64,000 nt of DNA. Source: Escherichia coli (GTDB lineage Bacteria > Pseudomonadota > Gammaproteobacteria > Enterobacterales > Enterobacteriaceae). Below the pieces are notes generated by a model. It saw only the letters and a list, made by a program, of their open reading frames with translations, did no database searches and was not told where the DNA came from. Below are positions 10,546 through 63,975 of this stretch, piece after piece. The stretch's first letter is position 1; each line of letters begins with the position of its first letter. A program made the translations under genes and the position numbers. The DNA is taken from NCBI RefSeq assembly GCF_051903065.1, contig NZ_CP178438.1. One strand, written 5' to 3'.

Positions 10546-10634
10546 TGTAGGCCGGATAAGGTGCTTGCACCGCATCCGGCATCAACGCCTGCACATTGTC
10601 GGATGCGACGCCGGGGCGTCTTATCCGACCTACG
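10546..10634. repeat. REP/BIME element (two inverted REP units) between phnE and phnD
   Basis: tgtaggccggataaggtgcttgcaccgcatccggca and gtcggatgcgacgccggggcgtcttatccgacctac read directly. Confidence 0.85.
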
Positions 10635-13104: not shown

Positions 13105-13665
<561 letters not shown>

Positions 13666-19284: not shown

Positions 19285-19337
19285 GCTGAAACGGATGGCC
19301 TGATGTGACGCTGTCTTATCAGACCAACAATTGAACT

Positions 19338-19354
19338 CTTAAGGTTCACTTAAT
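19338..19354 (+). promoter_or_regulatory. PmrA/BasR box upstream of pmrR
   Basis: CTTAAG-gttca-CTTAAT, an exact match to the YTTAAK-N5-YTTAAK direct-repeat consensus, about 45 bp upstream of the pmrR ATG. Confidence 0.7.
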
Positions 19355-19398
19355 CTCTGACGCGCATACTCTCCTCCAGGTTAACGGAGGAGAGTGCA

Positions 19399-19488
19399 AT
19401 GAAAAACCGTGTTTATGAAAGTTTAACTACCGTGTTCAGCGTGCTGGTGGTCAGCAGCTTTCTTTATATCTGGTTTGCCACGTACTGA
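19399..19488 (+). CDS. pmrR: Small membrane protein PmrR (29 aa)
   Basis: ATG preceded by GGAGG; MKNRVYESLTTVFSVLVVSSFLYIWFATY; below the ORF-track size cutoff; 3-prime end overlaps basS convergently. Confidence 0.8.
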   Translation: MKNRVYESLTTVFSVLVVSSFLYIWFATY

Positions 19489-20555
19489 TCTTTCTTCAGC
19501 CGTATCCAGGCGCGCGTGCCAGAAGTCTCTTGCCGGTTTTGCAGGAAAAACTGCCCGTGATGCAACTGTGTAATGCGGCTGACAATACTTAACCCCAGAC
19601 CAATCCCGCCATAACGGCTGTCCATTCGTACAAACGCTTTACTCAACTCCCCGCATTTACTCTCATCAATACCCGGTCCTTCATCTTCAACGGCCATGAC
19701 CGCTCCGTCATCTTCTTGCAGCTTAATCATAATGTTGCTGCCTTGCGGGCTGTAACGATGGGCGTTTTCTACCAGATTTCGCAATAACATCCGCAGCAGG
19801 GTTGCATCACCCTGAACGGTGATGTCGGCGGTGCTCTCTGGCAATAGCAGGGTTTGCTGTCGCTGGTCGAGCATGGTACTGAGTTCGTCATACGAGGGGA
19901 GAATGACATCTTCCAGCAGTTTTACATGTTGATAATTACCGGAAGAAAATGACTGTCCGGCACGCGCCAGTTGCAGCAGCTGGGAGACGCTCTCCATCAT
20001 CTGATCAAGCCGTGCCACTAACGGTGCTACATCAATGTGATGCGTTTTCGCCAGCAGTTCCAGATGCAAACGTACCCCCGCCAGTGGCGTTCGCAGTTCG
20101 TGCGCGACGTCAGCGGTAAACAACCTTTCGTTATCCAGCGTGCTGGTCAGGCGACTGACCAGATCGTTTAACGCCGAAACCACCGCTTCGATTTCGAGGG
20201 TGGCGCTGTGAATGGCAATGGGCGTTAAGTTGTCGGCGGTGCGCGCTTCCAGCTCTTTTTGCAGCTCCGCCAGCGGGCGGGTGATGCGGCGTACCGCCTG
20301 ATAGCAGATAAATAGCGTCAGGCTGACCATAAAGACGCCGGGGACAATCAGGCTGGCGACCGCCTCGCGGATCTCACGCATGATGTGGCGATCGTTGTTG
20401 CGATTGTCGCGTAGCGCCTGCTCAAACAGCTGAATCTGCTCGGTACTTTCATGCCATAGCCAGAAGACGCTGATCAGCTCAAACACCAACAAAATGGCCC
20501 CGATGGTCAATATCAGCCGTTGGCGCAGCGATATTGGTCGGCGCAGAAAACGCAT
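19464..20555 (-). CDS. basS: Sensor histidine kinase BasS (PmrB)
   Basis: 363 aa from the ATG at MRFLRRPISL; HAMP, H-box (DVAHELRTPL) and ATPase motifs; track ORF begins 3 codons earlier at a TTG. Confidence 0.9.
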   Translation of the reverse strand: MRFLRRPISLRQRLILTIGAILLVFELISVFWLWHESTEQIQLFEQALRDNRNNDRHIMREIREAVASLIVPGVFMVSLTLFICYQAVRRITRPLAELQKELEARTADNLTPIAIHSATLEIEAVVSALNDLVSRLTSTLDNERLFTADVAHELRTPLAGVRLHLELLAKTHHIDVAPLVARLDQMMESVSQLLQLARAGQSFSSGNYQHVKLLEDVILPSYDELSTMLDQRQQTLLLPESTADITVQGDATLLRMLLRNLVENAHRYSPQGSNIMIKLQEDDGAVMAVEDEGPGIDESKCGELSKAFVRMDSRYGGIGLGLSIVSRITQLHHGQFFLQNRQETSGTRAWIRLKKDQYVANQI

Positions 20556-36598: not shown

Positions 36599-37318
36599 TT
36601 ATTGGCAATATTGTTTCAGTAGTGAGTAGTGTTCTGCCTGAATACGGTAACGGTAAACCGGACGCCCCGTGACGCCATAATGGATACTGGTGAACAAGAT
36701 GTGGCAGTTGACCAGCCAGATGAGGTATTTACGGCAGGAAACACGCGAGATGTTAACCTCGTTAGCCAGCTCGTCGGTTGAAAACTCATAGTCCTGATGC
36801 GCGTCAATCCACTGGCACAGCGTGCGTAACGTCTGCGGCGTTAAGCCTTTTGGCAAGCGACGAGGATCCTGCTCGTTGGAGCTGCTGCCGTGGATTAACT
36901 GATCAAGCTCGGCCTGGTCATAATACTGATGTTTTTCCAGCGCCATTTTCTTTTGCCGCCAGCCGGTGAGCGCCTCTTCAAAGCGGGAAGCCTGGAAGGG
37001 TTTGATCAGGTAATCCACGACACCGTAATGCAGCGAATCTTTAATGGTTGCCGCATCGGCTGCGGAGGAGATGACAATCACATCACTTTTGCAACGCGCG
37101 TTATGCAGGACAGGCAGTAAATCGAGCCCGTTCTCTTTTTGCATATAGATATCGAGCAATATCAGGTCGATAGGCGTATCGCTATTGAAGATAATCTCTT
37201 TGGCTTTCTCCAGCGTCGAGGCTGTTCCACAGCATTGAAAGCCTGGGATTTGTGCTACGTATCGGCGATTCAGCTCCGCGACCATTGCGTCGTCATCGAT
37301 AATTAATACATTGATCAT
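36599..37318 (-). CDS. dcuR: Response regulator DcuR
   Basis: 239 aa; receiver domain plus C-terminal HTH. Confidence 0.93.
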   Translation of the reverse strand: MINVLIIDDDAMVAELNRRYVAQIPGFQCCGTASTLEKAKEIIFNSDTPIDLILLDIYMQKENGLDLLPVLHNARCKSDVIVISSAADAATIKDSLHYGVVDYLIKPFQASRFEEALTGWRQKKMALEKHQYYDQAELDQLIHGSSSNEQDPRRLPKGLTPQTLRTLCQWIDAHQDYEFSTDELANEVNISRVSCRKYLIWLVNCHILFTSIHYGVTGRPVYRYRIQAEHYSLLKQYCQ

Positions 37319-38946
37319 CTGTTCGACCTCTCCCCGTCCCAGGGTATCTGGACAAAAAATTGTGTGAAAATCCCGGGTTCCGATTCCACGGCGATGCTGC
37401 CGCCGAGATTTTCTACCTGTTGTTTGACAAGTGCTAAACCGACGCCTCGCTCGCTTCCTTTTGTCGAGACACCTTTGTCAAAAATGTGATCGATTTTGTC
37501 GGGTGCGATCCCCGGTCCATCATCGTTAACTTCGCAGTGCAGCCAGCCGTGACGGTAGTGCAATGTTACGCTAATTTCGCCACCGGGTTCCGGCCCTAAT
37601 GCTTCCAGCGCGTTTTCTATCAGATTTCCCAATGTGGTAATCAGCGTCGCGACCTGGTCCTCACTGCCGCTGTCTGGCAGCTGGCTTTCACTGTTTAAAA
37701 TCAGCGTATGGCCTAAATCGGTCGCGCGGTTAATCTTGCTGATTAAAAAACCAGCGATAACCGGAGATTTGATCTTACCCAGCAGAGAGCCAATCTCTTC
37801 CTGATAGTTATTGGCTGTTTTGAGAATGTAATCTTCCAACTGCTTATAACTCTTCAGATGCAATAATCCGAGAATCACATGCAATTTATTCATAAATTCG
37901 TGGGATCGTTCACGAAGTGCATCAGCATAGTTGACCAGACCGTCGAGTCGCTGCATCAGTTTACGAACTTCAGTTTTGTCCCTGAAGGTTGAAATGGCAC
38001 CGATGATAACGCCATTACTGCGCACCGGAACGGTGTTGATCAGTAATAGCCGATCTTTAATCGTAATCTCTTCGTCGCGGCGCGGCGTACCGTCGCGTAA
38101 CACTTCCGAGACATCTACCACCTGTGACCATGAGTGGCTGAGCGTCGACAGTTTCTCATCGTCCTGCGACTTACGGTAATTCAGCAATTCTTGTGCGGCA
38201 TCGTTGATCAGCGTGACCTCGCCGCGATCGTCCACGGCAACGACGCCTTCTTTGATAGACTGCAACATGGCCTGGCGTTGCTCAAACAGCGTGGAGATTT
38301 CGTAGGGTTCCAGGCCGAAAAGGATTTTTTTCAGTACTTTAACCAGAATGCAGGTGCCAATCAGTCCGACCAGCATGCCAAATAATACTGACCAGATAAT
38401 GCTCCAGCGACTGTCATTGATCTGTTGGGTCACGCGGCTTAACTCAAGGCCGATCGCCACCACGCCAATTTGTTTATGATTTTCATCGTAGATGGGGGTA
38501 AATACGCGTAAAGCCTGCGCCAGAAAACCGCGATTGATAGCGACATTTTCTTCGCCATTCAGCGCTTTAAGGATGTCATCACCTTTAAATGGCTGACCAA
38601 TACGCTGGGCTTCAGGATGCGAGTAGCGAAGACTTTGCATATCGGTAACGACAATAAACAGCAGATCGTTGCGTTTGCGCACGGCTTCCGCGATGGCCTG
38701 GATGCCGCTCTCCTGCGGTTTTTTCTGCAAGCCCTGACGGATTTCCGGCGAGTCGGCGAGAGTACGCGCCACTGCCAGTGCCTTGTTGGCTAGCCCGTCT
38801 CGCGTCATATCACTGATTTGCGAGAAGTAAATCAGATGCACCACCAATAGCACCGAGAACAGTACTGCGCTGACCATTAAGATCACAGTGGTACTCAATT
38901 TCATCGGACGTTTGCGTAACATGCGGTAGGGCAATGAATGTCTCAT
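37315..38946 (-). CDS. dcuS: C4-dicarboxylate sensor histidine kinase DcuS
   Basis: 543 aa; two membrane helices flanking a periplasmic domain, PAS and kinase domains; overlaps dcuR start by 4 nt. Confidence 0.93.
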   Translation of the reverse strand: MRHSLPYRMLRKRPMKLSTTVILMVSAVLFSVLLVVHLIYFSQISDMTRDGLANKALAVARTLADSPEIRQGLQKKPQESGIQAIAEAVRKRNDLLFIVVTDMQSLRYSHPEAQRIGQPFKGDDILKALNGEENVAINRGFLAQALRVFTPIYDENHKQIGVVAIGLELSRVTQQINDSRWSIIWSVLFGMLVGLIGTCILVKVLKKILFGLEPYEISTLFEQRQAMLQSIKEGVVAVDDRGEVTLINDAAQELLNYRKSQDDEKLSTLSHSWSQVVDVSEVLRDGTPRRDEEITIKDRLLLINTVPVRSNGVIIGAISTFRDKTEVRKLMQRLDGLVNYADALRERSHEFMNKLHVILGLLHLKSYKQLEDYILKTANNYQEEIGSLLGKIKSPVIAGFLISKINRATDLGHTLILNSESQLPDSGSEDQVATLITTLGNLIENALEALGPEPGGEISVTLHYRHGWLHCEVNDDGPGIAPDKIDHIFDKGVSTKGSERGVGLALVKQQVENLGGSIAVESEPGIFTQFFVQIPWDGERSNR

Positions 38947-39126
38947 CAGCTTCCTTGTGTGACAAATTTCTTAAGCATTATCTCTGATGAGGCGGGTAAT
39001 TCAAAGGGAGTAAGAATGATTGGCTATATAGGGGAAGAGACTCTGGCAACGGAAACTGCCAGTGCTGTATGAAGATTCCAGGGCTATGCTTATAGTGAAA
39101 ACCATACTGATGAGAGAGGGAAGGTC

Positions 39127-39357
39127 ATGGATCAGGCGCTACTGGACGGGGGTTATCGCTGTTATACCGGCGAAAAGATCGATGTCTATTTCAACACTGC
39201 GATATGCCAGCATTCTGGCAATTGCGTACGTGGCAACGGCAAGTTATTTAATCTCAAACGAAAGCCGTGGATCATGCCGGATGAAGTCGACGTTGCCACT
39301 GTGGTGAAAGTGATTGATACGTGCCCGAGCGGCGCGCTGAAATACCGTCATAAATAA
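39127..39357 (+). CDS. yjdI: Small Cys-containing protein YjdI
   Basis: 76 aa; Cys residues spaced like a metal or Fe-S site (CYTG, CQHSGNC, CPSG). Confidence 0.8.
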
Positions 39358-39368
39358 GCGAGGGTAAA

Positions 39369-39641
39369 ATGGAAATACGCGAAGGCCACAATAAATTTTA
39401 CATTAATGACGAACAAGGCAAGCAAATCGCTGAAATTGTCTTTGTGCCGACCGGAGAGAATTTAGCGATTATCGAACATACCGATGTCGATGAAAGCCTG
39501 AAAGGGCAAGGGATTGGTAAACAGCTGGTTGCGAAAGTCGTGGAAAAAATGCGTCGGGAAAAACGAAAAATTATCCCATTATGTCCATTTGCGAAACACG
39601 AATTTGATAAAACGCGGGAGTATGATGATATTCGCAGTTGA
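39369..39641 (+). CDS. yjdJ: GNAT-like small acetyltransferase YjdJ
   Basis: 90 aa; GQGIGKQLV acetyl-CoA binding motif. Confidence 0.8.
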
Positions 39642-39867
39642 TGGAAGAGTACAGATTCACGATATTTTTCATGCTCTCCGCGGAGTGATGCAGGAGAGCA
39701 TCTGAAGGGTAGGGGGATGCACAAAGAATGGGCAGAGAGAGCGTTTTTTTGTCCCAAGTCATCCCCTTTACTGAGCAAAAAAAAGAATATCTCCTATATG
39801 AGAATCATCAATCGGGGTTAATAAGTTTTGCGTCCCCAGAGCGTTTAATATTGATAGGAGTCATATT

Positions 39868-40164
39868 ATGGAAGGTAAAAACAAGTTCAATACTTATGTT
39901 GTTTCTTTTGATTATCCATCATCTTATTCCTCAGTGTTCTTAAGGTTAAGATCATTGATGTATGATATGAATTTCTCCTCTATCGTGGCTGATGAATATG
40001 GGATACCACGACAATTGAATGAAAACTCCTTCGCAATAACGACATCATTAGCCGCAAGTGAAATCGAAGATTTAATCAGGCTTAAATGCTTAGACTTACC
40101 GGATATTGATTTTGACCTCAACATTATGAAAGTTGATGACTATTTCCGTCAGTTTTACAAATAG
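39868..40164 (+). CDS. ghoS: Type V antitoxin GhoS (endoribonuclease specific for ghoT mRNA)
   Basis: 98 aa, MEGKNKFNTYVVSFDYPSSYSSVFLRL; immediately upstream of ghoT. Confidence 0.88.
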   Translation: MEGKNKFNTYVVSFDYPSSYSSVFLRLRSLMYDMNFSSIVADEYGIPRQLNENSFAITTSLAASEIEDLIRLKCLDLPDIDFDLNIMKVDDYFRQFYK

Positions 40165-40191
40165 CCAGGAAGGATAAGAAGAACATAAAAA

Positions 40192-40365
40192 ATGGCACTA
40201 TTCTCTAAAATATTAATTTTTTATGTGATTGGTGTGAACATATCCTTTGTCATTATCTGGTTTATCTCACATGAGAAAACACATATTCGTTTACTTAGTG
40301 CATTCCTGGTAGGAATAACCTGGCCAATGAGTCTGCCTGTGGCATTACTTTTTTCTCTCTTTTAG
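40192..40365 (+). CDS. ghoT: Small membrane-lytic toxin GhoT (57 aa)
   Basis: MALFSKILIFYVIGVNISFVIIWFISHEKTHIRLLSAFLVGITWPMSLPVALLFSLF; two hydrophobic helices; below the ORF-track cutoff. Confidence 0.85.
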   Translation: MALFSKILIFYVIGVNISFVIIWFISHEKTHIRLLSAFLVGITWPMSLPVALLFSLF

Positions 40366-40440
40366 GAGCTGTAGTTGAGTGGACCCGCTGGTTATCGTGA
40401 AACGAAGCGTCTCTCCTCAAAACTGGATTTGCGGAACGAT

Positions 40441-40470
40441 GAACGAAGCAGTCGCCTGACTGCTTCGTTC
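40441..40470. terminator. Hairpin between convergent ghoT and lysU
   Basis: 13-bp stem gaacgaagcagtc / gactgcttcgttc with a 4-nt loop; no strong U-tract. Confidence 0.45.
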
Positions 40471-40483
40471 ACTAAAGTGAAAT

Positions 40484-42001
40484 TTATTTCTGTGGGCGCA
40501 TCGCCGGGAAGAGAATAACGTCGCGAATAGTATGACTGTTTGTAAACAGCATAATCATTCGGTCTATACCAATACCCAGACCAGCGGTTGGCGGCAGACC
40601 ATATTCCAGCGCAGTCACGTAATCTTCGTCATAGAACATGGCTTCGTCGTCACCTGCAGCTTTAGCGTTAACCTGTTCCTGGAAACGTTCAGCCTGATCT
40701 TCTGCGTCGTTTAATTCGCTAAAACCATTACCGATTTCACGACCACCGATGAAGAATTCAAAACGGTCGGTGATTTCCGGGTTAACATCATTACGGCGCG
40801 CCAGCGGTGACACTTCTGCCGGATATTCCGTAATAAAGGTTGGCTGAATCAGATGTGCTTCTGCCACTTCATCAAAGATCTCCGTGACAATACGTCCCAG
40901 CCCCCAGCTTTTCTCTACCGTAATTCCGATAGATTCAGCTAATGCTTTAGCAGCATCAAAATTATCCAGGTCGGCCATATCGGTTTCTGGACGATATTTT
41001 TTGATTGCTTCGCGCATGGTGAGTTTTTCAAACGGTTTGCCGAAATCAAACACATGCTCGCCATAAGTGACTTTAGTGGTACCCAGAACCTCTTGTGCCA
41101 GGGTGCGGAACAGTGACTCTGTCAGTTCAATCAAATCGTGGTAATCCGCATACGCCATGTAGAGTTCCATCATTGTGAACTCAGGATTATGGCGAACAGA
41201 AATACCTTCATTACGGAAGTTACGGTTGATTTCGAATACCCGTTCAAAACCGCCTACAACCAGACGTTTCAGATACAGCTCCGGCGCGATACGCAGATAC
41301 ATATCTAAATCCAGAGCATTATGATGGGTAATAAACGGGCGAGCAGATGCCCCACCTGGAATTACCTGCATCATCGGGGTTTCTACTTCCATAAAGCCGC
41401 GCGCGACCATGAACTGACGGATAGCGGCCAGAATTTTTGAACGGACAACAAACGTTTGACGGGATTTATCGTTAGCGATGAGGTCCAGATAACGTTGACG
41501 ATAACGGACTTCCTGATCCTGCAGACCATGGAATTTATCTGGTAAAGGACGTAGTGCTTTTGTCAGCAGGCGCAACTCAGTACAGTGAATGGAAAGCTCA
41601 CCCGTTTGCGTCTTAAACAGCGTACCGCGGGCACCGATAATGTCACCCAGATCCCATTTTTTAAACTGATCGTTATAAACACCTTCTGGCAGGCTATCTC
41701 GTGCGACGTACAGTTGAATACGGCCACCGACATCCTGCAACGTTACAAAGGAGGCTTTCCCCATGATACGACGGGTCATCATTCGGCCAGCAACCGAGAC
41801 TTCAATGTTTAAGGATTCCAGTTCCTGGTTATCCTTCGCATCAAACTCTTCGTGCAACTGGTCAGAGGTATGGTCGCGGCGAAAATCATTGGGAAACGCC
41901 ACACCTTGCTGACGTAGTGCCGCCAGTTTTTCGCGGCGATTTCTCAGTTCATCGTTAAAATCAATAGCCTCATTGGCTCCCCGTGTTTCTTGTTCAGACA
42001 T
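40484..42001 (-). CDS. lysU: Lysine--tRNA ligase, inducible form LysU
   Basis: 505 aa from [30 protein letters not shown]; class II aaRS motifs; track ORF begins at an upstream TTG. Confidence 0.92.
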
Positions 42002-42237
42002 TTTGGTTCCTCTAAATCCAGCTTTCAATTTAGCGTAGATAAAGAGACAGATCGGTACACTGTATTATCTGCCTCGACTATTAGTAACTCAGTTTATCTT
42101 ATCGAAACTAACGCTTACCTCAAGTTGATATCACTAATAAATAACCATCAAAATGGTTTAAATGACTTATTAATATCGATTTTCTAGTGTTATAAACTGA
42201 AAGTTAATTTATTCATAACTAATTGTTTTTACGACAG

Positions 42238-43695
42238 TTAATCGTTGCTCTCCTGTATCATATTCGTCGGCGTGCTAAACAGGAAACGGGTAGCAAAGGC
42301 CAATACGACGATGATCGCGACACAAGCCAACGTCCACTCTCCCATCTGAGAAAAGAATCGCTGGTAAGCTGCAATTGCCATACCGCTAATTTGCGACTCT
42401 GTCGTCTGCTGTGCTACTACGCCTGCCAGCCAGTTGGCGACCGCGCCTGTTGCCAGCATATAAATCCCGGTTAATACGCCAGACATTTTCAGACGCGTGA
42501 TTTGCGCAATCGCCACCGGGTCAATAAAGAGTTCGGCAAAGCCCATTAGCGCCAGCCCGGATACCATCACGCCCATTGACGCTTGACCGTCAGCTGCTGC
42601 ATGTCGGGCATCAAATGCCAGCAACATAAAGCCACAAGCCATCAGCAGTAAGCCAAAGGCAAACTTCAGCCAGACGCGCAATGTTGAGTTGCCGTGGCTT
42701 TCTGGCGACGCCAGCCAGGCCAGAACAACCCCAGCGAGCATCACCGCAATTGCATTCACCGACTGGAATAGTGCTGTAGGTACTTCAATATTGAATGCCT
42801 GACGATTCACAAAGCGATCGATAAACAAGCTGATGGTACTGCCGCCCTGTTGTGCCAGTACCCAGAACAATGTCCCGACAAACATCAACAATACAATTTG
42901 CCAAAGAGCACGGCGGTGTTCGGGGAATTTGATCATCATGCGGGCAATGATTTGTGCGGCAATGAGGCAAACGATCGCCAGCAAATATCCGGACCAGTCG
43001 TTCTCCAGCAGCAGGGTAAAAAATACTGGGGCTAAACAGAGCATCACCACTAACCAGCTCCATACCGGTAAGGCAAATTTGACGCTAGTGAGCGCTTTTT
43101 TATCCATACTACGCGTGGACTGGAAATGACGATGACCGCTTAAGAAAATCAACAAACCGATAAACATGCCGCCACCCGCAAGGGCAAAGCCAACATGCCA
43201 TCCATACCACTGAGCAGCCAGGCCGCAGGCGATTGGGGCGGCGATAGAACCGATATTGCCCGCAGCATACAGCAGCGAAAAACCGCCATCACGTCGATGA
43301 TCGTTCTCGTCGTAGAGCTCGCCAAGCAAACAGCTGATGTTTGATTTGAATAAACCGTAGCCACAAATAATGATTGCCAGCGCCAGATACAGGCTAAAGG
43401 TTGAATTTGTATCAATGCCCAGCACCACATGGCCAAGGGTCATTAACAGCGCGCCGGCAATCACTGCAGTGCGGTTGCCGAGCAGGCGGTCGGCAAGCCA
43501 GCCGCCGAGAATAGGGGTAACGTAAACCAGAGAAGCATATGCGCTGAACAGGCTGATGGCATGGTTATCATCAAAACCAAGCTGATGGGTGAGATAGAGA
43601 ATGAGTAAGGCACGCATGCCGTAAAAACTGAAGTACTCCCAGATTTGGATCGCCACGATATAGTATATCGCGCGCGGCTGTGAGGGTGTTTTCAT
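42238..43695 (-). CDS. dtpC: Dipeptide/tripeptide:H+ symporter DtpC (YjdL), POT family
   Basis: 485 aa. Confidence 0.9.
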
Positions 43696-43711
43696 GTGTT
43701 CTCCTTATGAG

Positions 43712-43740
43712 CAAAAAAGGGAAGTGGCAAGCCACTTCCC
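43712..43740 (-). terminator. Intrinsic terminator of the cadBA operon
   Basis: Hairpin gggaagtggcaagccacttccc followed on the minus strand by six T, just downstream of the cadA stop. Confidence 0.7.
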
Positions 43741-43753
43741 TTGTACGAGCTAA

Positions 43754-45901
43754 TTATTTTTTGCTTTCTTCTTTCAATACCTTAACGGTATAGCGGCCAT
43801 CAGCCTGACGGTATGCACCGTGAATATCGGTTTCAAAGCCCGGATAGTGAGCGCCGATTTCACACAGCATCTGCAGGAACTCCAGAACCGGGCGGCTTTC
43901 TTCGGTGATCATTTCACCCGGCATTACCAGAGGAACTCCCGGCGGATATGGAAGGATCATATTGGCGTTAATACGACCTACCATTTCGTCGAGGTAAACT
44001 TCTTCGGTCATACCGTGCAGCTCTTTCTGGAACGCAGCATACGGAGTCATTACCATTGTCGGCAGCACTTCAAATGCGCGATACATCAGATCCGGCAGAT
44101 TGTGGTGAACAATCAGTTTGTGGATATTCTGAGCCAGTTCCTGAATACGCATGTTTTCATAGAATTCAGGATCTTCACGATACAGAGACGGCAGCATGTT
44201 TTTCACACGCAGGTTCAGGTCGAACGCACGTTTGAAGTCAGTCAGAGCACGCAGCAGGCTCAGTGCTTTGGTCTTATCGATACCGATGCTGAACAGGAAC
44301 AGCAGGTTATACGGACCGGTTTTCTCAACAACGATGCCATGTTCGTCGAGGTATTTCGCCACGATGCTGGCCGGAATACCAAAGTCGCTCATGGTGCCGT
44401 CTTTTTCCATCCCCGGAGTCAGCAGGGTGACTTTGATCGGGTCAAGATACATGTGCTCGTTATCGATGTTTTTGAAGCCGTGCCAGGTGCTGTCAGAACG
44501 CAGCGGCCAGCATTCAGTCGTATCGATATGATCCGGCTGCCATACATCAAAGAACCAGCCATCAGATTCCGTTCTCAGACGTTTGATCTCTTTACGGAAT
44601 TTGATCGCACGTTCAATGGAACCGTTGATCAGACGCTTACCAGCATTACCTTTCATCATCGCCGCAGCGGTTTCAGTGGACGCCACGATACCGTAGTGCG
44701 GAGAAGTGGTGGTGTGCATCATGTAGGCTTCGTTAAAGGTTTCTTCGTTTACGTCACCTTTAACGTGGATCATGGAAGCCTGAGAGAACGCCGCCAGCAG
44801 TTTGTGAGTAGACTGGGTTTCGTAAATCACTTTCCCTTCTACACGGCCACCGCTCATACCGCATTTACCTTCGTAAATCGGTGAGAAGTTGGTGTAAGGC
44901 ACCCACGCGGAGTCAAAGTGGATGGATTTCACATCCAGTGTTTTCTTGATGAAGTCGGTGTTGTACAGCAGACCATCATAGGTAGAGTTGGTAATTACAG
45001 CATGTACCGGCCAGGTTGCGTTTGGTGTTTCTTTCACGCGCTTAGCAATGGTAGCGTGCTGGAATTCACTCTGTGGGATACCACCAAGAATACCGTAAGC
45101 GTTACGGGTCGGGCGGAAATAGATTGGCGTAACATCGCTCATCATCATCAGGTGGGTCAGCGATTTATGGCAGTTACGGTCAATCAGAATGGTGCTGCCT
45201 GCCGGAGCAGAGTACATACCAACAATTTTGTTCGCAGTGGAAGTACCGTTGGTCACCATGTAGCTGCGGTCTGCGTTAAAGACGCGAGCGATATACTGTT
45301 CTGCTTCTTTGTGTGGACCACTGTGATCCAGCAGAGAACCCAGTTCAGATACTGAAATGGAAATATCAGATTTCATGGTATTCGGACCAAAGAAATCATA
45401 GAACAGGCTACCTACCGGGCTTTTCTGGAATGCAGTACCGCCCATGTGACCAGGAGTACAGAAAGTATATTTACCTTCACGAACATATTTAAACAGTGCT
45501 TTAGTCAGCGGAGGCAGAATAGTGTTGATATATTCGTCAGTGGTCTGCTTGATCTTGTTAGCAATATCTTCAGCAGCACCTAGCGCATATTCAAAGAAGC
45601 TAATCTGTAAACGCAGGTCATTCAGGCTTACATCGAGAGTGGAATACGTATTAGCGAACGCGTACAACGGCAGGTTCTCGTTCATTTTGCTAATTTCTTC
45701 GCACAGCTCGAGATTATATTTATCCCAGTCAAAAATAACGCCGCACAGACGCGCATTGTTTTCGATCAGTTTTAATAAGTCGTCACGGTCGTTCGGGTAA
45801 ACAATCTGGAAGTTCAGACGTTCAAGCGCGCGATGAAGTTCACGGATGGGTTCTTCTTTAAAATAAACCCCCATGTGATTCAATATTGCAATAACGTTCA
45901 T
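43754..45901 (-). CDS. cadA: Inducible lysine decarboxylase CadA
   Basis: 715 aa from MNVIAILNHMGVYFKEEP; paralogous in sequence to AdiA at 25537-27804. Confidence 0.93.
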   Translation of the reverse strand: MNVIAILNHMGVYFKEEPIRELHRALERLNFQIVYPNDRDDLLKLIENNARLCGVIFDWDKYNLELCEEISKMNENLPLYAFANTYSTLDVSLNDLRLQISFFEYALGAAEDIANKIKQTTDEYINTILPPLTKALFKYVREGKYTFCTPGHMGGTAFQKSPVGSLFYDFFGPNTMKSDISISVSELGSLLDHSGPHKEAEQYIARVFNADRSYMVTNGTSTANKIVGMYSAPAGSTILIDRNCHKSLTHLMMMSDVTPIYFRPTRNAYGILGGIPQSEFQHATIAKRVKETPNATWPVHAVITNSTYDGLLYNTDFIKKTLDVKSIHFDSAWVPYTNFSPIYEGKCGMSGGRVEGKVIYETQSTHKLLAAFSQASMIHVKGDVNEETFNEAYMMHTTTSPHYGIVASTETAAAMMKGNAGKRLINGSIERAIKFRKEIKRLRTESDGWFFDVWQPDHIDTTECWPLRSDSTWHGFKNIDNEHMYLDPIKVTLLTPGMEKDGTMSDFGIPASIVAKYLDEHGIVVEKTGPYNLLFLFSIGIDKTKALSLLRALTDFKRAFDLNLRVKNMLPSLYREDPEFYENMRIQELAQNIHKLIVHHNLPDLMYRAFEVLPTMVMTPYAAFQKELHGMTEEVYLDEMVGRINANMILPYPPGVPLVMPGEMITEESRPVLEFLQMLCEIGAHYPGFETDIHGAYRQADGRYTVKVLKEESKK

Positions 45902-45980
45902 AGTCATATCTCCAGGTAAAAAAGGCCCCTCCCAACACATGGGACAAAATGAAAGGAGGAGCCTCGGAAAATACTTTTAA

Positions 45981-47315
45981 TTAATGTGCGTTAGACGCGG
46001 TGTGGTTATCCATTGAGTGGCTCTGGCGCTCGTGCATTTTGCGAGCATAGAACATCAGGATAATCAGGCTGACGATGAAGGTACCTGCCAGCTCGAAGGA
46101 GCTTGCGCCCATCAGCGCGATGAAGCAGAACACGCAACCCAGTACAGAGCAGATCAGGCTGACAAAGTTGCGGATGTTAACGCCTTCAAAACGAATCAGG
46201 TCAACGCAAGAGTAGAAGTACGGCAGCATAGTCAGCAGTACTGCGATACCGGTCAGTTCACCGAACAGGTCAGATGCTTTACCACCGGCAGAGTTCATCA
46301 GAGTGATGAGGATCATCAGGGCAGTCATTTTCACTGCAGCCAGCAGCAGACCTTTTTTCGGAATACCGTTGCTGTCGACTTCACCATAAACTTTCGGGAA
46401 GTTACCGTCGTTAGCGGCACGTACACCTGCCTGGCCTACCAACATCATCCAGGAGCCCAGAGAAGTCAGGCACGCAAAGGCGGTGAATGCAGAAACCAGC
46501 GGCGCAGCCCAGTTACCGAGGATAGTTGAAGCACTGATTGCAAACGGAGCACCGGAGGCCGCCATTACAGAAGACGGATACATACCGGAAAGCACCTGAG
46601 TCGCAGCGATATAAACAATACCTGCTAAACCAGTACCCAGCATGGTTGCCAGCGGAACGGTACGTTTCGGGTTTTTAACCATACCAGTACTTACAGCTGC
46701 GGATTCAACACCCACGAAGGCCCACAGGCAGAGCAGAATACTTTTAATGATCGCATGACCATCAGTGGTATCCGCAGTATTCCAGTTAGCTGCATAAGTT
46801 GCCGCATCAAACCAATGCCAGCCAACAATAGCAGTCATCACCACAGGAATAAGAACCAGCACCAGACCAATAGTGGTTAAACGGCTTACCCAGGTACCGC
46901 CGAGCATATTTACAAAGGTAAATACCCAGACGATAGCAATACAGGCGATACCCGCCGGAACAGGATCATTTAATACTGGGAAGAAGGTGGAAAGATAAGA
47001 TACAGCGGTAATACCAATCGCCAGGTTACCAATCCAGTTAGCATGGTAATAAAGAACACCTGTCTGAAAACCAAATGCAGGAGAAATTTCTCCGGCATAA
47101 GCAATTGGGCCACCTTGTTGCGGGTTTTTTGTTGCCAGTCGGGCATATACATACGCCAGCGACATTGCACCAATAATAGAGATAATCCAACCCCAGATAG
47201 CAATACCACCGATACTTGCTAGGTTCGCAGGTAATAATGCAATACCGCTCCCCATCATATTACCGGCAACAACACCGGTACAGGCAAATAGCCCGATCTT
47301 CTTGGCAGAACTCAT
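45981..47315 (-). CDS. cadB: Lysine:cadaverine antiporter CadB
   Basis: 444 aa APC-family transporter, paralogous to AdiC. Confidence 0.93.
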   Translation of the reverse strand: MSSAKKIGLFACTGVVAGNMMGSGIALLPANLASIGGIAIWGWIISIIGAMSLAYVYARLATKNPQQGGPIAYAGEISPAFGFQTGVLYYHANWIGNLAIGITAVSYLSTFFPVLNDPVPAGIACIAIVWVFTFVNMLGGTWVSRLTTIGLVLVLIPVVMTAIVGWHWFDAATYAANWNTADTTDGHAIIKSILLCLWAFVGVESAAVSTGMVKNPKRTVPLATMLGTGLAGIVYIAATQVLSGMYPSSVMAASGAPFAISASTILGNWAAPLVSAFTAFACLTSLGSWMMLVGQAGVRAANDGNFPKVYGEVDSNGIPKKGLLLAAVKMTALMILITLMNSAGGKASDLFGELTGIAVLLTMLPYFYSCVDLIRFEGVNIRNFVSLICSVLGCVFCFIALMGASSFELAGTFIVSLIILMFYARKMHERQSHSMDNHTASNAH

Positions 47316-47680
47316 GCTCTTCTCCTAATTTCATTTTTGAATTTGGAGTCCGGGTCATGATGTATAACTATTTCCTGACCAGACCAAACTGGCGCTAAGA
47401 TTACTCACGAAAAAAGGATTAATCCTAAAGATTAGGTGAAATAACACAAAAGTTTCTGTAAGTGAGAACTTGAGGTTTTTTATTAACACATCAGGATCGC
47501 AAGTTGATATCATGAAAAGATAAACATTCAATGTTTACAATAGATTGCGTGACGTCTTCTGGTTAAATTTATGTAATAAAAATTATGCGGCAAATAAATT
47601 GCCGCAACATATTATACCAACAGGAACATACAAAAACTCAACAACAAATATTCCCGAGCATGAATCAACCCGGGGGTTAC
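47316..47680 (-). promoter_or_regulatory. cadBA promoter / CadC operator region
   Basis: AT-rich 365-bp gap between the cadC stop and cadB start; individual sites not resolved. Confidence 0.5.
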
Positions 47681-49219
47681 TTATTCTGAAGCGAGAAATT
47701 TGTCGAGATAAGGTACAACATAAGGAACAGAAGTCTGGAATATACCATTTTCAATCCAGTAAAGGGTGTTTGCCCCTGGGCGTAAATTAAAGGCGGTGAG
47801 ATATGCATCAGCCGCTTCCCGGTTCATCCCCTTCATTTCATAAACCTTGCCAAGCAATACATAATTTAGCCAGGACATTTCAAGATCAATGCCAGTATTT
47901 ATCGCCTGGTAAGACTCATCTGTTTTACCTTTTACCAGAGCACTGATCGCTTTTATTTGATATATAATGGACAGGTTATTCAATTCCGGTAGTGTAACAA
48001 TGTTATCTATTTCTGTGTTCAGTGCTGCTAATTGTTTTTCATCTAAAGGATGTTGAGAATAGCGCACGATATCAACTAATGCTTTTTCTGCTCTCGCGTA
48101 GGTAAATTCTGGGGATGATTGAACAATCTCACCTAATAATTCACTGGCACGGTTCAATGATTTATCATCGCCATGCAGTAAATAATCATGTGCCTGATAA
48201 AAATTAGTTAATAACGCACCACGATGAGGCAAAATTTGCTGGAGCGTCTCCTGCATTCGTTGTGGCCACGGTTGGTTTAACGCTTTTGATAAACTCTCCA
48301 GTAAATCATTTTGAATCGCCAGCTGATTACCGTTAGTGATGACATAACGTTTATCCAGCATGGTTGAACCATCTGCATTGTCTACCAATTTTATCGACAT
48401 AAAGCATTGTTGAGCACGGTATTGGCGCTGATTAACAAACGCAATAGATAATGTTTTACCGGAACTGCTCGGTTCATCAATGTTGTAGTTGATTTTGTCA
48501 TGCACCATAAAGGTGGAGAAGGTGTTAAGTGATGTCGCCACCAAATCACCCACGCCTATCGCGTAAGAGAGCTGATACGGGGAACTCCAGCTGTTACAAC
48601 TTTTATTTACCATATTAATGTCAATATCGCGTGGATTGAGCAAAATACGCGATTTGCTCATCGGAAGACGTGTATCAAGACTTGAAAACGCTACCAGTGC
48701 TACACAGATACCTAAGGACAACAGGAAAAAAAACCATACCCAAAAGGTAGTGAATCGTTTGCTTTTAACTGGGGATTGTTCAGGTGGCGTTGCAGTGTTT
48801 TGAATGTTAAGACTGTGGGAGGGAGAATCTGTGGCAGGAACCGCCTCTGGTATAGGGGGAGGCGAAGATAGCATTATTTCCTCTCCCTCTTCTTCGCTGT
48901 ACCAGATAACCGGCACCATTAATTTATAGCCGCGCTTTGGTACAGTAGCGATATAGACAGGACTATCTTCATCATTATCTTTTAATGACTTACGTAGTTC
49001 TGAGATACTCTGCGTCACAACGTGATTGGTGACAATACTTCTCTTCCAGACATTATCGATAAGTTCATCCCTGCTAAGTACTTCGCCACTGTGTTGAGCA
49101 AAGAAAACCAGAAGGTCGATTAATCTCGGCTCAAGGGTAAGTTGACGCCCATTGCGGCTAATTTGGTTTATGGACGGAGTAACAAGCCATTCGCCAACGC
49201 GAACTACAGGTTGTTGCAT
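47681..49219 (-). CDS. cadC: ToxR-like membrane-bound transcriptional activator CadC
   Basis: 512 aa; N-terminal winged HTH, one membrane helix (FWVWFFFLLSLGICVALVAF), periplasmic sensor domain. Confidence 0.92.
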   Translation of the reverse strand: MQQPVVRVGEWLVTPSINQISRNGRQLTLEPRLIDLLVFFAQHSGEVLSRDELIDNVWKRSIVTNHVVTQSISELRKSLKDNDEDSPVYIATVPKRGYKLMVPVIWYSEEEGEEIMLSSPPPIPEAVPATDSPSHSLNIQNTATPPEQSPVKSKRFTTFWVWFFFLLSLGICVALVAFSSLDTRLPMSKSRILLNPRDIDINMVNKSCNSWSSPYQLSYAIGVGDLVATSLNTFSTFMVHDKINYNIDEPSSSGKTLSIAFVNQRQYRAQQCFMSIKLVDNADGSTMLDKRYVITNGNQLAIQNDLLESLSKALNQPWPQRMQETLQQILPHRGALLTNFYQAHDYLLHGDDKSLNRASELLGEIVQSSPEFTYARAEKALVDIVRYSQHPLDEKQLAALNTEIDNIVTLPELNNLSIIYQIKAISALVKGKTDESYQAINTGIDLEMSWLNYVLLGKVYEMKGMNREAADAYLTAFNLRPGANTLYWIENGIFQTSVPYVVPYLDKFLASE

Positions 49220-49794
49220 AATAGAAACTCATTCGAAAAGGGAATGATGCAATGATAATTGCCACAACCTATTTTTACCATCTATAGATGGGTTTATTTA
49301 CATATTATTGGTGAATGCAAGACGTTATTTTTACCAGCCATAAACTTCTTGATTACATGGTATTAAGAAAGGATTTTACTGAGAACCAGAAGTAATATTC
49401 CTTACCATCAAAATTCATCATCTTTGCCAAAGAAAAATGTTCAGAAAATAATCCATGGAAAATTGTCCGGAGCGCTTACTATTTTAATGGATTGTTAGTC
49501 TTTGCATGAGCAAGCGGACTGATACATTTCTCTTTGTTCTCATTCAGAAAATCTCATCAGTCGCCGTTCAGACCGGTGTTGTGCTTTATGGATGCGTTAC
49601 GCTCCTGATGACGTCATTTGACGTTCAACAGCATCACGGGGTCGCACGACATTTCACGTCAGTTAGTGCTATCGCTCAGGAACAAATTTTCCCGAATTGG
49701 GATATGCCCGCAAATTGCTGGTGATGTGGGGAGAATCTGGTTGAGTTCGGTAGAATTGATTTGGCGGCAGAACGCTTAAATCGTGGCGTCCTGA

Positions 49795-49828
49795 AACGAA
49801 AAACGGACCTCCGTGGAGGTCCGTTTAT
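49795..49828 (-). terminator. Intrinsic terminator downstream of pheU
   Basis: Hairpin aaacggacctccgtggaggtccgttt with U-rich tail on the minus strand. Confidence 0.65.
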
Positions 49829-49835
49829 ATGAATT

Positions 49836-49911
49836 TGGTGCCCGGACTCGGAATCGAACCAAGGACACGGGGATTTTCAATCCCCTGCTCTACCGACTGA
49901 GCTATCCGGGC
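49836..49911 (-). tRNA. pheU: tRNA-Phe (anticodon GAA)
   Basis: Minus strand reads GCCCGGATAGCTCAGTCGGTAGAGCAGGGGATTGAAAATCCCCGTGTCCTTGGTTCGATTCCGAGTCCGGGCACCA, 76 nt with encoded CCA. Confidence 0.97.
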
Positions 49912-63924: not shown

Positions 63925-63975
63925 CTTTGCAGGACGACCTGCAAACGCGTCTTTTCACCGGGGACGGCCCCAATT
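63925..63975 (+). promoter_or_regulatory. Guanidine-II (mini-ykkC) riboswitch upstream of gdx
   Basis: Two short GC hairpins with ACGR tetraloops, GCAGG-ACGA-CCTGC (63929-63942) and GGGG-ACGG-CCCC (63960-63971), 17-nt linker, then GGAG and an ATG at 63990. Confidence 0.65.

Follow-up and report, generated by a model that had tools for sequence, protein, structure and literature searches.

Genes at the locus

The window, by which we mean the whole 64,000-nucleotide stretch of Escherichia coli DNA that was analysed, contains four short genes in a row on the plus strand. The first, yjdI (39127–39357), encodes a 76-aa Fe–S protein of the Fer4_19 family, and opens the yjdI–yjdJ pair; yjdJ (39369–39641) begins 11 nt past the yjdI stop codon and encodes a 90-aa mini-GNAT of the Acetyltransf_CG family. 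Next come ghoS (39868–40164), for a 98-aa endoribonuclease antitoxin, and ghoT (40192–40365), for a 57-aa, two-helix inner-membrane toxin. On one side the block is flanked by dcuS (37315–38946, minus strand), divergent from yjdI, and on the other by lysU (40484–42001, minus strand; named lysS by PGAP), which specifies the inducible lysyl-tRNA synthetase and is convergent with ghoT. Farther 3′ of ghoT, past lysU, lie dtpC, cadA, cadB and cadC, in that order, and beyond cadC, 9.5 kb from ghoST, is tRNA-Phe (49836–49911). This arrangement—dcuS, yjdI–yjdJ–ghoS–ghoT, lysU–dtpC–cadABC—is that of the ordinary E. coli chromosome.

A preliminary description of this DNA had recognized the four ORFs, had named ghoS–ghoT as a type V toxin–antitoxin (TA) pair that looked AT-rich, and had characterized the upstream genes as encoding a 76-aa Cys-containing protein and a 90-aa GNAT-like acetyltransferase. 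All of this holds. The ORF list and the raw sequence agree on the coordinates and the strand, and all four proteins score well past the curated Pfam cut-offs: YjdI with PF06902 (Fer4_19; 103.8 bits), YjdJ with PF14542 (Acetyltransf_CG; 87 bits), GhoS with PF11080 (ferredoxin-like RNase fold; 135 bits; E = 9e-40) and GhoT with PF10753 (90.4 bits). YjdI has four cysteines, at positions 12, 27, 33 and 66. GhoS matches the solved structure PDB 2LLZ (‘yjdK’; E = 5.8e-61) and YjdJ matches PDB 5I0C, and for this reason we regard the four ORFs as real genes rather than chance ones. RefSeq gives the same four gene names in E. coli strain 23CRST027, which is 100% identical over the 1.6-kb query, and that query finds a match in 5414 of 5426 complete E. 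coli genomes. The GC content is 0.340 for ghoS and 0.345 for ghoT, compared with 0.494 for yjdI, 0.414 for yjdJ, 0.476 for lysU and 0.514 for the window; the low-GC block spans roughly 39780 to 40300. An Rfam scan of 38700–40700 at E ≤ 1 gave no match, and hence no known sRNA or riboswitch in the yjdJ–ghoS junction, and PADLOC matched none of YjdI, YjdJ, GhoS and GhoT.

The GhoS/GhoT toxin–antitoxin system

GhoS/GhoT is the founding type V TA system. In E. coli K-12, where the two proteins are also called YjdK and YjdO (Wang et al. 2012, via PMC4010927, PMC3827094 and PMC4344625), GhoS is an endoribonuclease with ghoT mRNA as its specific target, and it neutralizes the toxin by cleaving this message, with no binding between the GhoS and GhoT proteins (PMC3827094; PMC12282077; PMC4010927). 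GhoT, a membrane protein with two helices, causes membrane damage and a fall in ATP and in the proton-motive force (PMC3827094; PMC12282077). A second RNase, MqsR, degrades the 5′ part of the ghoST transcript, which encodes GhoS, and ghoT becomes enriched (PMC4010927; PMC11783221).

The pair in the window occupies the same locus as its K-12 counterpart and has the same lengths, the same antitoxin-first bicistronic order, GCU trinucleotides in ghoS only, and F38 in GhoT; it differs only by the GhoS allele, T88K. With respect to the common E. coli sequence, too, the difference is T88K (98% identity to that allele), and no difference in function would be expected from it. The locus is, then, the known GhoS/GhoT system itself, which RefSeq annotates and earlier papers describe, and its recovery here is the re-identification of a textbook TA system.

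By analogy with K-12, the system would operate as follows. ghoS and ghoT would be transcribed as one mRNA, and GhoS protein would cut the ghoT part of it, leaving the toxin untranslated. Under stress, MqsR would cut at GCU sites, of which there are three in ghoS and none in ghoT, so enriching the ghoT message; GhoT would then enter the inner membrane, and the proton-motive force and ATP would collapse, arresting growth. That GhoS is an RNase, that MqsR controls the transcript and that GhoT harms the membrane are points carried over from published work on the almost identical K-12 genes; the present analysis itself established what the genes are, how they are arranged, their composition, the uneven share of GCU sites, and their distribution and synteny. 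The asymmetry is consistent with the MqsR model rather than proof of it, because the lack of GCU in ghoT has a probability of 0.11 on composition alone, which is not significant.

Other features of the two genes fit the same pattern. The ghoS stop codon ends at 40164 and the ghoT start is at 40192, with a spacer of 27 nt in between. A separate ribosome-binding site (RBS) precedes each gene, that of ghoS being AGGAG, 8 nt upstream. GhoT has a GRAVY of 1.50, with a charged loop (residues 27–33) between two hydrophobic segments. Both F38 and I21 are present in it; in K-12 GhoT, the substitution F38R abolishes toxicity (PMC4344625). An 11-nt perfect inverted repeat at the ghoT start codon was considered as a translation-occluding hairpin and rejected: it does not appear in the MFE fold (z = −0.32), and among relatives its 5′ arm changes with no matching change in the other arm. 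A second inverted repeat, at 40440–40471, is a perfect one of 14 bp with a 4-nt loop, and is situated where ghoT and lysU converge, between their 3′ ends. Its region folds better than shuffles (z = −3.01), and it is likely to be a transcript-end hairpin shared by the two genes.

Two other kinds of toxin resemble GhoT. OrtT (YdcX), an orphan toxin of E. coli, likewise belongs to PF10753, has 57 aa and two transmembrane helices, and acts by membrane damage and ATP depletion (PMC4344625). OrtT, however, lacks a GhoS partner, and GhoS does not neutralize it (PMC4344625), whereas ghoT in the window has ghoS directly upstream; no copy of OrtT occurs in the 64-kb window. The toxins of type I systems (e.g. 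Hok and TisB) are also small, hydrophobic inner-membrane peptides that dissipate the membrane potential (PMC3827094), but their antitoxins are antisense RNAs, whereas GhoS is a protein, an RNase that acts on the toxin mRNA.

Distribution of the two pairs

In the preliminary description, the proximity of a small GNAT to a TA pair had raised the question of whether the GNAT and its partner belong, with ghoS–ghoT, to a larger stress module. The distribution of the genes argues against this from both directions. In the forward test, relatives of YjdJ were collected at one genome per species (80 loci), and DcuS, YjdI, YjdJ, GhoS, GhoT and LysU were mapped onto them. The full order dcuS–yjdI–yjdJ–ghoS–ghoT–lysU was found only in E. 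coli, E. whittamii and two further Escherichia species; among the ~50 loci outside Escherichia, yjdI–yjdJ is conserved and not one has a match to GhoS or GhoT within 4 kb of the pair. In the reverse test, we looked at what surrounds GhoS in 12 further clusters, at 25–83% identity, with the help of tblastn tables, and YjdI and YjdJ are near the GhoS homolog in none of the 12.

The limits of homology also fall between the pairs. In E. albertii and E69, similarity to the window runs as far as the yjdJ stop codon (39641–39644) and breaks off there, with no ghoST 3′ of yjdJ. ghoST copies in foreign contexts (loci L004, L005, L006 and L007) begin to match at 39845, which is 23 nt before the ghoS ATG, and in L004 and L005 the homology ends at 40394. 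A ghoST cassette is thereby delimited (39845–40394, plus strand) that consists of the RBS, ghoS, the 27-nt spacer, ghoT, and 29 nt 3′ of ghoT; the inverted repeat at 40440–40471 is outside it. The segment between the two breakpoints (39642–39844, plus strand) is not common to ghoST cassettes in other contexts. E69 also illustrates how the pairs part company: there, the block from ghoS to cadC, between yjdJ and tRNA-Phe, is replaced by an Eco29kI restriction–modification pair, and yjdIJ stays behind, while ghoST is lost along with lysU–dtpC–cadABC. Base composition separates the pairs as well (0.34 GC for ghoST vs 0.41–0.49 for yjdIJ).

Our preferred reading is that these are two independent two-gene units that lie side by side in E. 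coli and its nearest sister lineages alone, ghoST being a canonical type V TA cassette, and we consider this very probable. As originally flagged, the locus changes little, and the suggested tie to the GNAT fails.

The GhoS family has a very restricted distribution. An indexed search returned 47 clusters, and at E ≤ 1e-3 there were 36 matches among 1.84 billion representatives, many being E. coli GhoS fragments; the only organisms named for the matches are Escherichia, Salmonella and Pluralibacter. The cassette has the deviant composition (GC 0.34 vs 0.51) and the patchy, narrow distribution (absent 3′ of yjdJ in E. albertii and E69) by which islets are recognized. There are no direct repeats in 39560–40560, and no integrase or transposase gene adjoins ghoST in the window. 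Composition and distribution point to a horizontal origin of ghoST, and the lack of repeats and mobility genes counts against it; in this view the AT-rich cassette would have entered between lysU and the stop codon of yjdJ, a site prone to recombination.

Neighbours of GhoS homologs

If yjdIJ is not the usual company of GhoS, other genes may be. A decarboxylase–antiporter operon (of the cadBA or the speF/potE type) and/or lysU sits directly beside GhoS in 8 of the 12 clusters, or in 9 of the 12 when a LysU-like remnant is included, and lysU is the neighbour that GhoS homologs keep most often. In the eight, such an operon, lysU or cadC is within 25–300 nt and on the same strand.

The contexts vary with distance from the E. 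coli protein. At 83% GhoS identity, in E. coli M056 (L006), a speF-like gene, a cadA copy and a potE-like gene precede ghoS and ghoT, which are convergent with lysU. GhoT and LysU of this locus are 100% and 99% identical, respectively, to those of the window, so that a recombination joint lies inside the cassette. At 76% (L004 and L005), the order is speF-like, potE-like, a gap of 301 nt, ghoS and ghoT, and then cadB-like and cadA-like genes. At 60%, in E. coli O74:H8 (L089), speF-like and potE-like genes are followed by ghoS and a remnant of ghoT, and then by eamA on the opposite strand. At 54%, in Salmonella (L091), a cadC gene is present and lysU is followed after 55 nt by ghoT, and this after 32 nt by ghoS.

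Among the more distant homologs, one from Pluralibacter (L093; GhoS 31%) has the order speF, potE, 89 nt, ghoT, 25 nt, ghoS and eamA. In L099 and L100, from Enterobacteriaceae (GhoS 29%), cadC, cadB and cadA are followed by ghoT (after 129 nt), ghoS (after 47 nt) and a lysU-like gene (after 78 nt). Two Salmonella loci (L096 and L101; GhoS 31–33%) have a permease gene, a cadA-like gene, ghoS and a lysU-like gene, and no detectable ghoT. L094 (GhoS 27%) has ghoS, a LysU-like remnant and eamA. Neither a decarboxylase nor a lysU neighbour is present in L098, which is in a pgm/seqA region, or in L103 and L104, which are beside DUF481 and fructosamine-kinase genes. Gene order itself differs across the family: the toxin comes first in the distant homologs, and the antitoxin first in the E. 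coli clade.

These contexts allow another explanation of the locus, namely that inducible decarboxylase/antiporter loci (cadBA and speF–potE) and lysU have the GhoS/GhoT family as an accessory, connected with acid and pH homeostasis or stabilizing the loci against deletion. We rate this as possible, though somewhat unlikely. Besides the frequency of such neighbours, it is favoured by the occurrence of both cad-type and speF/potE-type contexts, which are interleaved on the GhoS tree, by the compact cadC–cadB–cadA–ghoT–ghoS–lysU order of L099 and L100, and by the window, where lysU–dtpC–cadABC lies immediately downstream and is the very block that E69 has lost together with ghoST. The tree is a weak one, however, built on ~98 aa at ~30% identity, and the 12 clusters sampled are not phylogenetically independent, so that inherited synteny or hitch-hiking within a small set of related genera could account for the pattern. 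Three divergent clusters are without such a neighbour, and the convergent orientation of ghoST and lysU in E. coli means that the two are not co-transcribed. In a literature search, ghoT and lysU came up together in no paper, co-mentions of ghoS and cadA were irrelevant, and no expression or phenotype data were found; we found no paper that reports the link.

Stated in full, the proposal is that GhoS/GhoT recurs as an accessory of cadBA–lysU and speF–potE loci in Enterobacteriaceae, rather than being free-floating, and that its place beside yjdIJ in E. coli, inverted and antitoxin-first, is derived; we put this forward tentatively. Were it true, a toxin that collapses the proton-motive force would be tied physiologically to acid and pH homeostasis, or would act to stabilize deletion-prone loci. 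What GhoT/GhoS does physiologically is still a matter of debate, and a link that proved reproducible could be of modest value, in that it would provide conditions for testing this (acid, lysine or ornithine induction, and CadC control). The association is the sole lead from this locus that we think worth carrying forward.

The yjdJ–ghoS junction

Under the preferred reading of two independent units, the gap of 226 nt that separates yjdJ from ghoS is a boundary. The contrary view is that yjdI–yjdJ–ghoS–ghoT is a single co-regulated stress module in which the GNAT, with its Fe–S partner, modulates the TA pair by, for example, acetylation or redox sensing. Several properties of the junction are compatible with such a module. 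All four genes are on the same strand, and a consensus scan of the gap detected no canonical intrinsic terminator and no strong consensus promoter, the counts being no different from those in shuffles, so that the scan favours neither view. There is a 9-bp hairpin (39671–39679 paired with 39693–39701) that has no U-tract, and the gap as a whole folds moderately better than shuffles (z = −2.06). A consensus-like promoter, TTGATA-17-GATATT, is located at 39604–39632, inside the 3′ end of yjdJ. The yjdJ–ghoS junction, moreover, is intact in 5314 of 5426 E. coli genomes (97.9%), and, given this, the common strand and the lack of a canonical terminator, read-through from yjdIJ into ghoST is possible.

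Conservation within the species does not discriminate between the two views. The ghoT–lysU junction is intact in 5262 of the same 5426 genomes, so that both junctions are ~97–98% intact. The 1.6-kb block is interrupted in 14% of E. coli genomes, which carry a ~15-kb TagB/TagC autotransporter island (PMC6592367). The island is flanked by duplicated 3′-yjdI–yjdJ, and a full copy of yjdJ still abuts ghoS. The retention of this copy is again what a module would predict. In ~11% of E. coli genomes, on the other hand, the intact yjdI and its promoter are ~15 kb away from ghoST. Two microarray studies name yjdI and yjdJ together as induced, and not yjdK or yjdO, which is weak evidence against co-regulation of the four. 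A lysine-acetyltransferase screen included YjdJ in its set of overexpressed GNATs, and YjdJ is absent from the four enzymes reported there. Added to the conservation of yjdIJ without ghoST outside Escherichia, the lack of yjdIJ at every other GhoS cluster, and breakpoints and a shift in GC that fall exactly between the pairs, these observations make a four-gene module very improbable. We infer that yjdIJ and ghoST are independent at the level of transcription, too, and the ghoST promoter is presumably in the junction segment or in the 3′ end of yjdJ.

The yjdI–yjdJ pair

The upstream genes appear to form a unit in their own right. They are adjacent in 56 enterobacterial loci, ~50 of them outside Escherichia, where YjdI and YjdJ are 77–89% identical to those of the window. 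The genera include Citrobacter, Enterobacter, Lelliottia, Raoultella, Kluyvera, Kosakonia, Trabulsiella, Silvania, Pluralibacter and others. Across the 56 loci the gap between the yjdI stop codon and the yjdJ ATG is 8–16 nt, and mostly 10–11 nt, with a single locus at 36 nt; such spacing looks operon-like. Judged by its sequence conservation, yjdI–yjdJ is evidently an old, vertically inherited enterobacterial pair, separate from the TA system. The negative result with respect to a module is useful in this sense: it marks yjdI–yjdJ as an ancient pair of its own, to be studied separately.

YjdJ itself has weak, sub-threshold similarity to ordinary acetyltransferases, and the GNAT-toxin models of NCBIfam do not match it. 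The comparison with toxins arises because the type II systems AtaT, TacT and KacT likewise have a GNAT-fold protein encoded beside a small partner gene. In the AtaT/TacT families, the toxins are full-length GNATs and the antitoxins are DNA-binding proteins. The yjdI–yjdJ pair has neither a full-length GNAT toxin nor an adjacent DNA-binding antitoxin: YjdJ is half the size of those toxins, and family, size and partner together rule it out as an AtaT/TacT-like toxin. That yjdI–yjdJ is nevertheless a GNAT-type TA pair, making the locus two TA systems in tandem, is extremely unlikely, the likeness of a small GNAT gene tightly paired with a small upstream gene being only superficial, for YjdJ is a 90-aa PF14542 protein that matches no NCBIfam toxin model and nothing in PADLOC, its partner is an Fe–S protein (PF06902), and the pair is conserved vertically across many genera, unlike mobile TA loci, with relatives that occur together in Bacteroidota as a metabolic pair might.

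YjdI is reported to have been characterized spectroscopically (bioRxiv 10.1101/2024.04.03.587993). As to the Bacteroidota, a YjdI-like ORF lies within ~1 kb of a YjdJ-like gene in several loci, and this co-occurrence suggests that the two have a metabolic role in common.

Genomic neighbourhood of the GhoS family

GhoS-family genes are directly adjoined by cadBA-type or speF/potE-type decarboxylase-antiporter operons, by lysU, or by both, in 8-9 of the 12 clusters sampled. Such neighbours occur at the homologous loci L004, L006, L089, L091, L093, L096 and L099-L101, and in the window itself, where the lysU-dtpC-cadABC stretch occupies 40484-49219. At L099 and L100 the genes lie on a single strand in the order cadC-cadB-cadA-ghoT-ghoS-lysU. 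Our literature search found no report of a link between the GhoS family and decarboxylase-antiporter operons or lysU.

The order of the two genes is not constant. In more distant homologs (Salmonella, Pluralibacter and other Enterobacteriaceae) ghoT precedes ghoS (e.g. L091, 4789-5288; L093, 4805-5300; L100, 3679-4193), the reverse of the order in E. coli. This toxin-first arrangement bears on the MqsR differential-decay model, because the model requires ghoS to be the 5' part of the transcript. In Salmonella enterica, genes for GhoS-like proteins of 90-93 aa (31-33% identity) are flanked on one side by a cadA-like gene, encoding a decarboxylase, and on the other by a lysU-like gene (L096, 5001-5273; L101, 3879-4160). 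No ghoT was detectable at either of these loci, and the ghoS-like genes there are possibly orphan antitoxin/RNase genes.

Divergence, recombination and replacement

The locus of E. coli M056 (L006, 6001-8093) encodes a GhoS only 83% identical to that of the window, but a GhoT that is 100% identical and a LysU that is 99% identical. This contrast places a recombination joint within the ghoS-ghoT cassette, with a decarboxylase island coming in from the ghoS side. In some E. coli strains there is an additional, divergent ghoS of 60% identity (L089 and L090; protein cluster of P0048), one cluster member being present on 209 contigs. This second ghoS follows speF/potE-like genes and is accompanied by the transporter gene eamA and a truncated ghoT. 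At residue 88 the GhoS of the window (39868-40164; WP_095716590.1) carries Lys in place of the Thr of the common E. coli allele; Lys is also found there in the 60%-identity paralog.

In E. coli E69 (CP089930.1; L012 and L066) two copies of yjdJ, the second frameshifted, enclose a SPATE autotransporter island. Past the second copy, an Eco29kI restriction enzyme and a C5 methylase stand in place of the whole ghoS-ghoT-lysU-dtpC-cadABC block as far as tRNA-Phe (39645-49833 in the window).

Flanking genes and other elements

YjdI-like (Fer4_19) ORFs lie ~1 kb or less from YjdJ-like GNAT genes at five Bacteroidota loci (L071, L073, L075, L077 and L080), and in Enterobacteriaceae the two genes are 10-11 nt apart. 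This proximity and close spacing suggest that the Fe-S protein and the mini-GNAT form a functional pair.

Between the convergent 3' ends of ghoT and lysU is an inverted repeat whose 14-bp arms match perfectly around a 4-nt loop (40440-40471). It has no clear U-tract on either strand, and is probably a transcript-end structure common to both genes.

Elsewhere in the window, Rfam naRNA4 (CssrE) has six matches (10550-10630 and 13176-13659), five of which form a minus-strand tandem array with ~100-nt spacing—a REP/BIME-type repeat cluster. Rfam also matches the sRNA STnc630 (19330-19495; 181.8 bits) and, close to the window end, a Guanidine-II (mini-ykkC) riboswitch aptamer (63926-63972).
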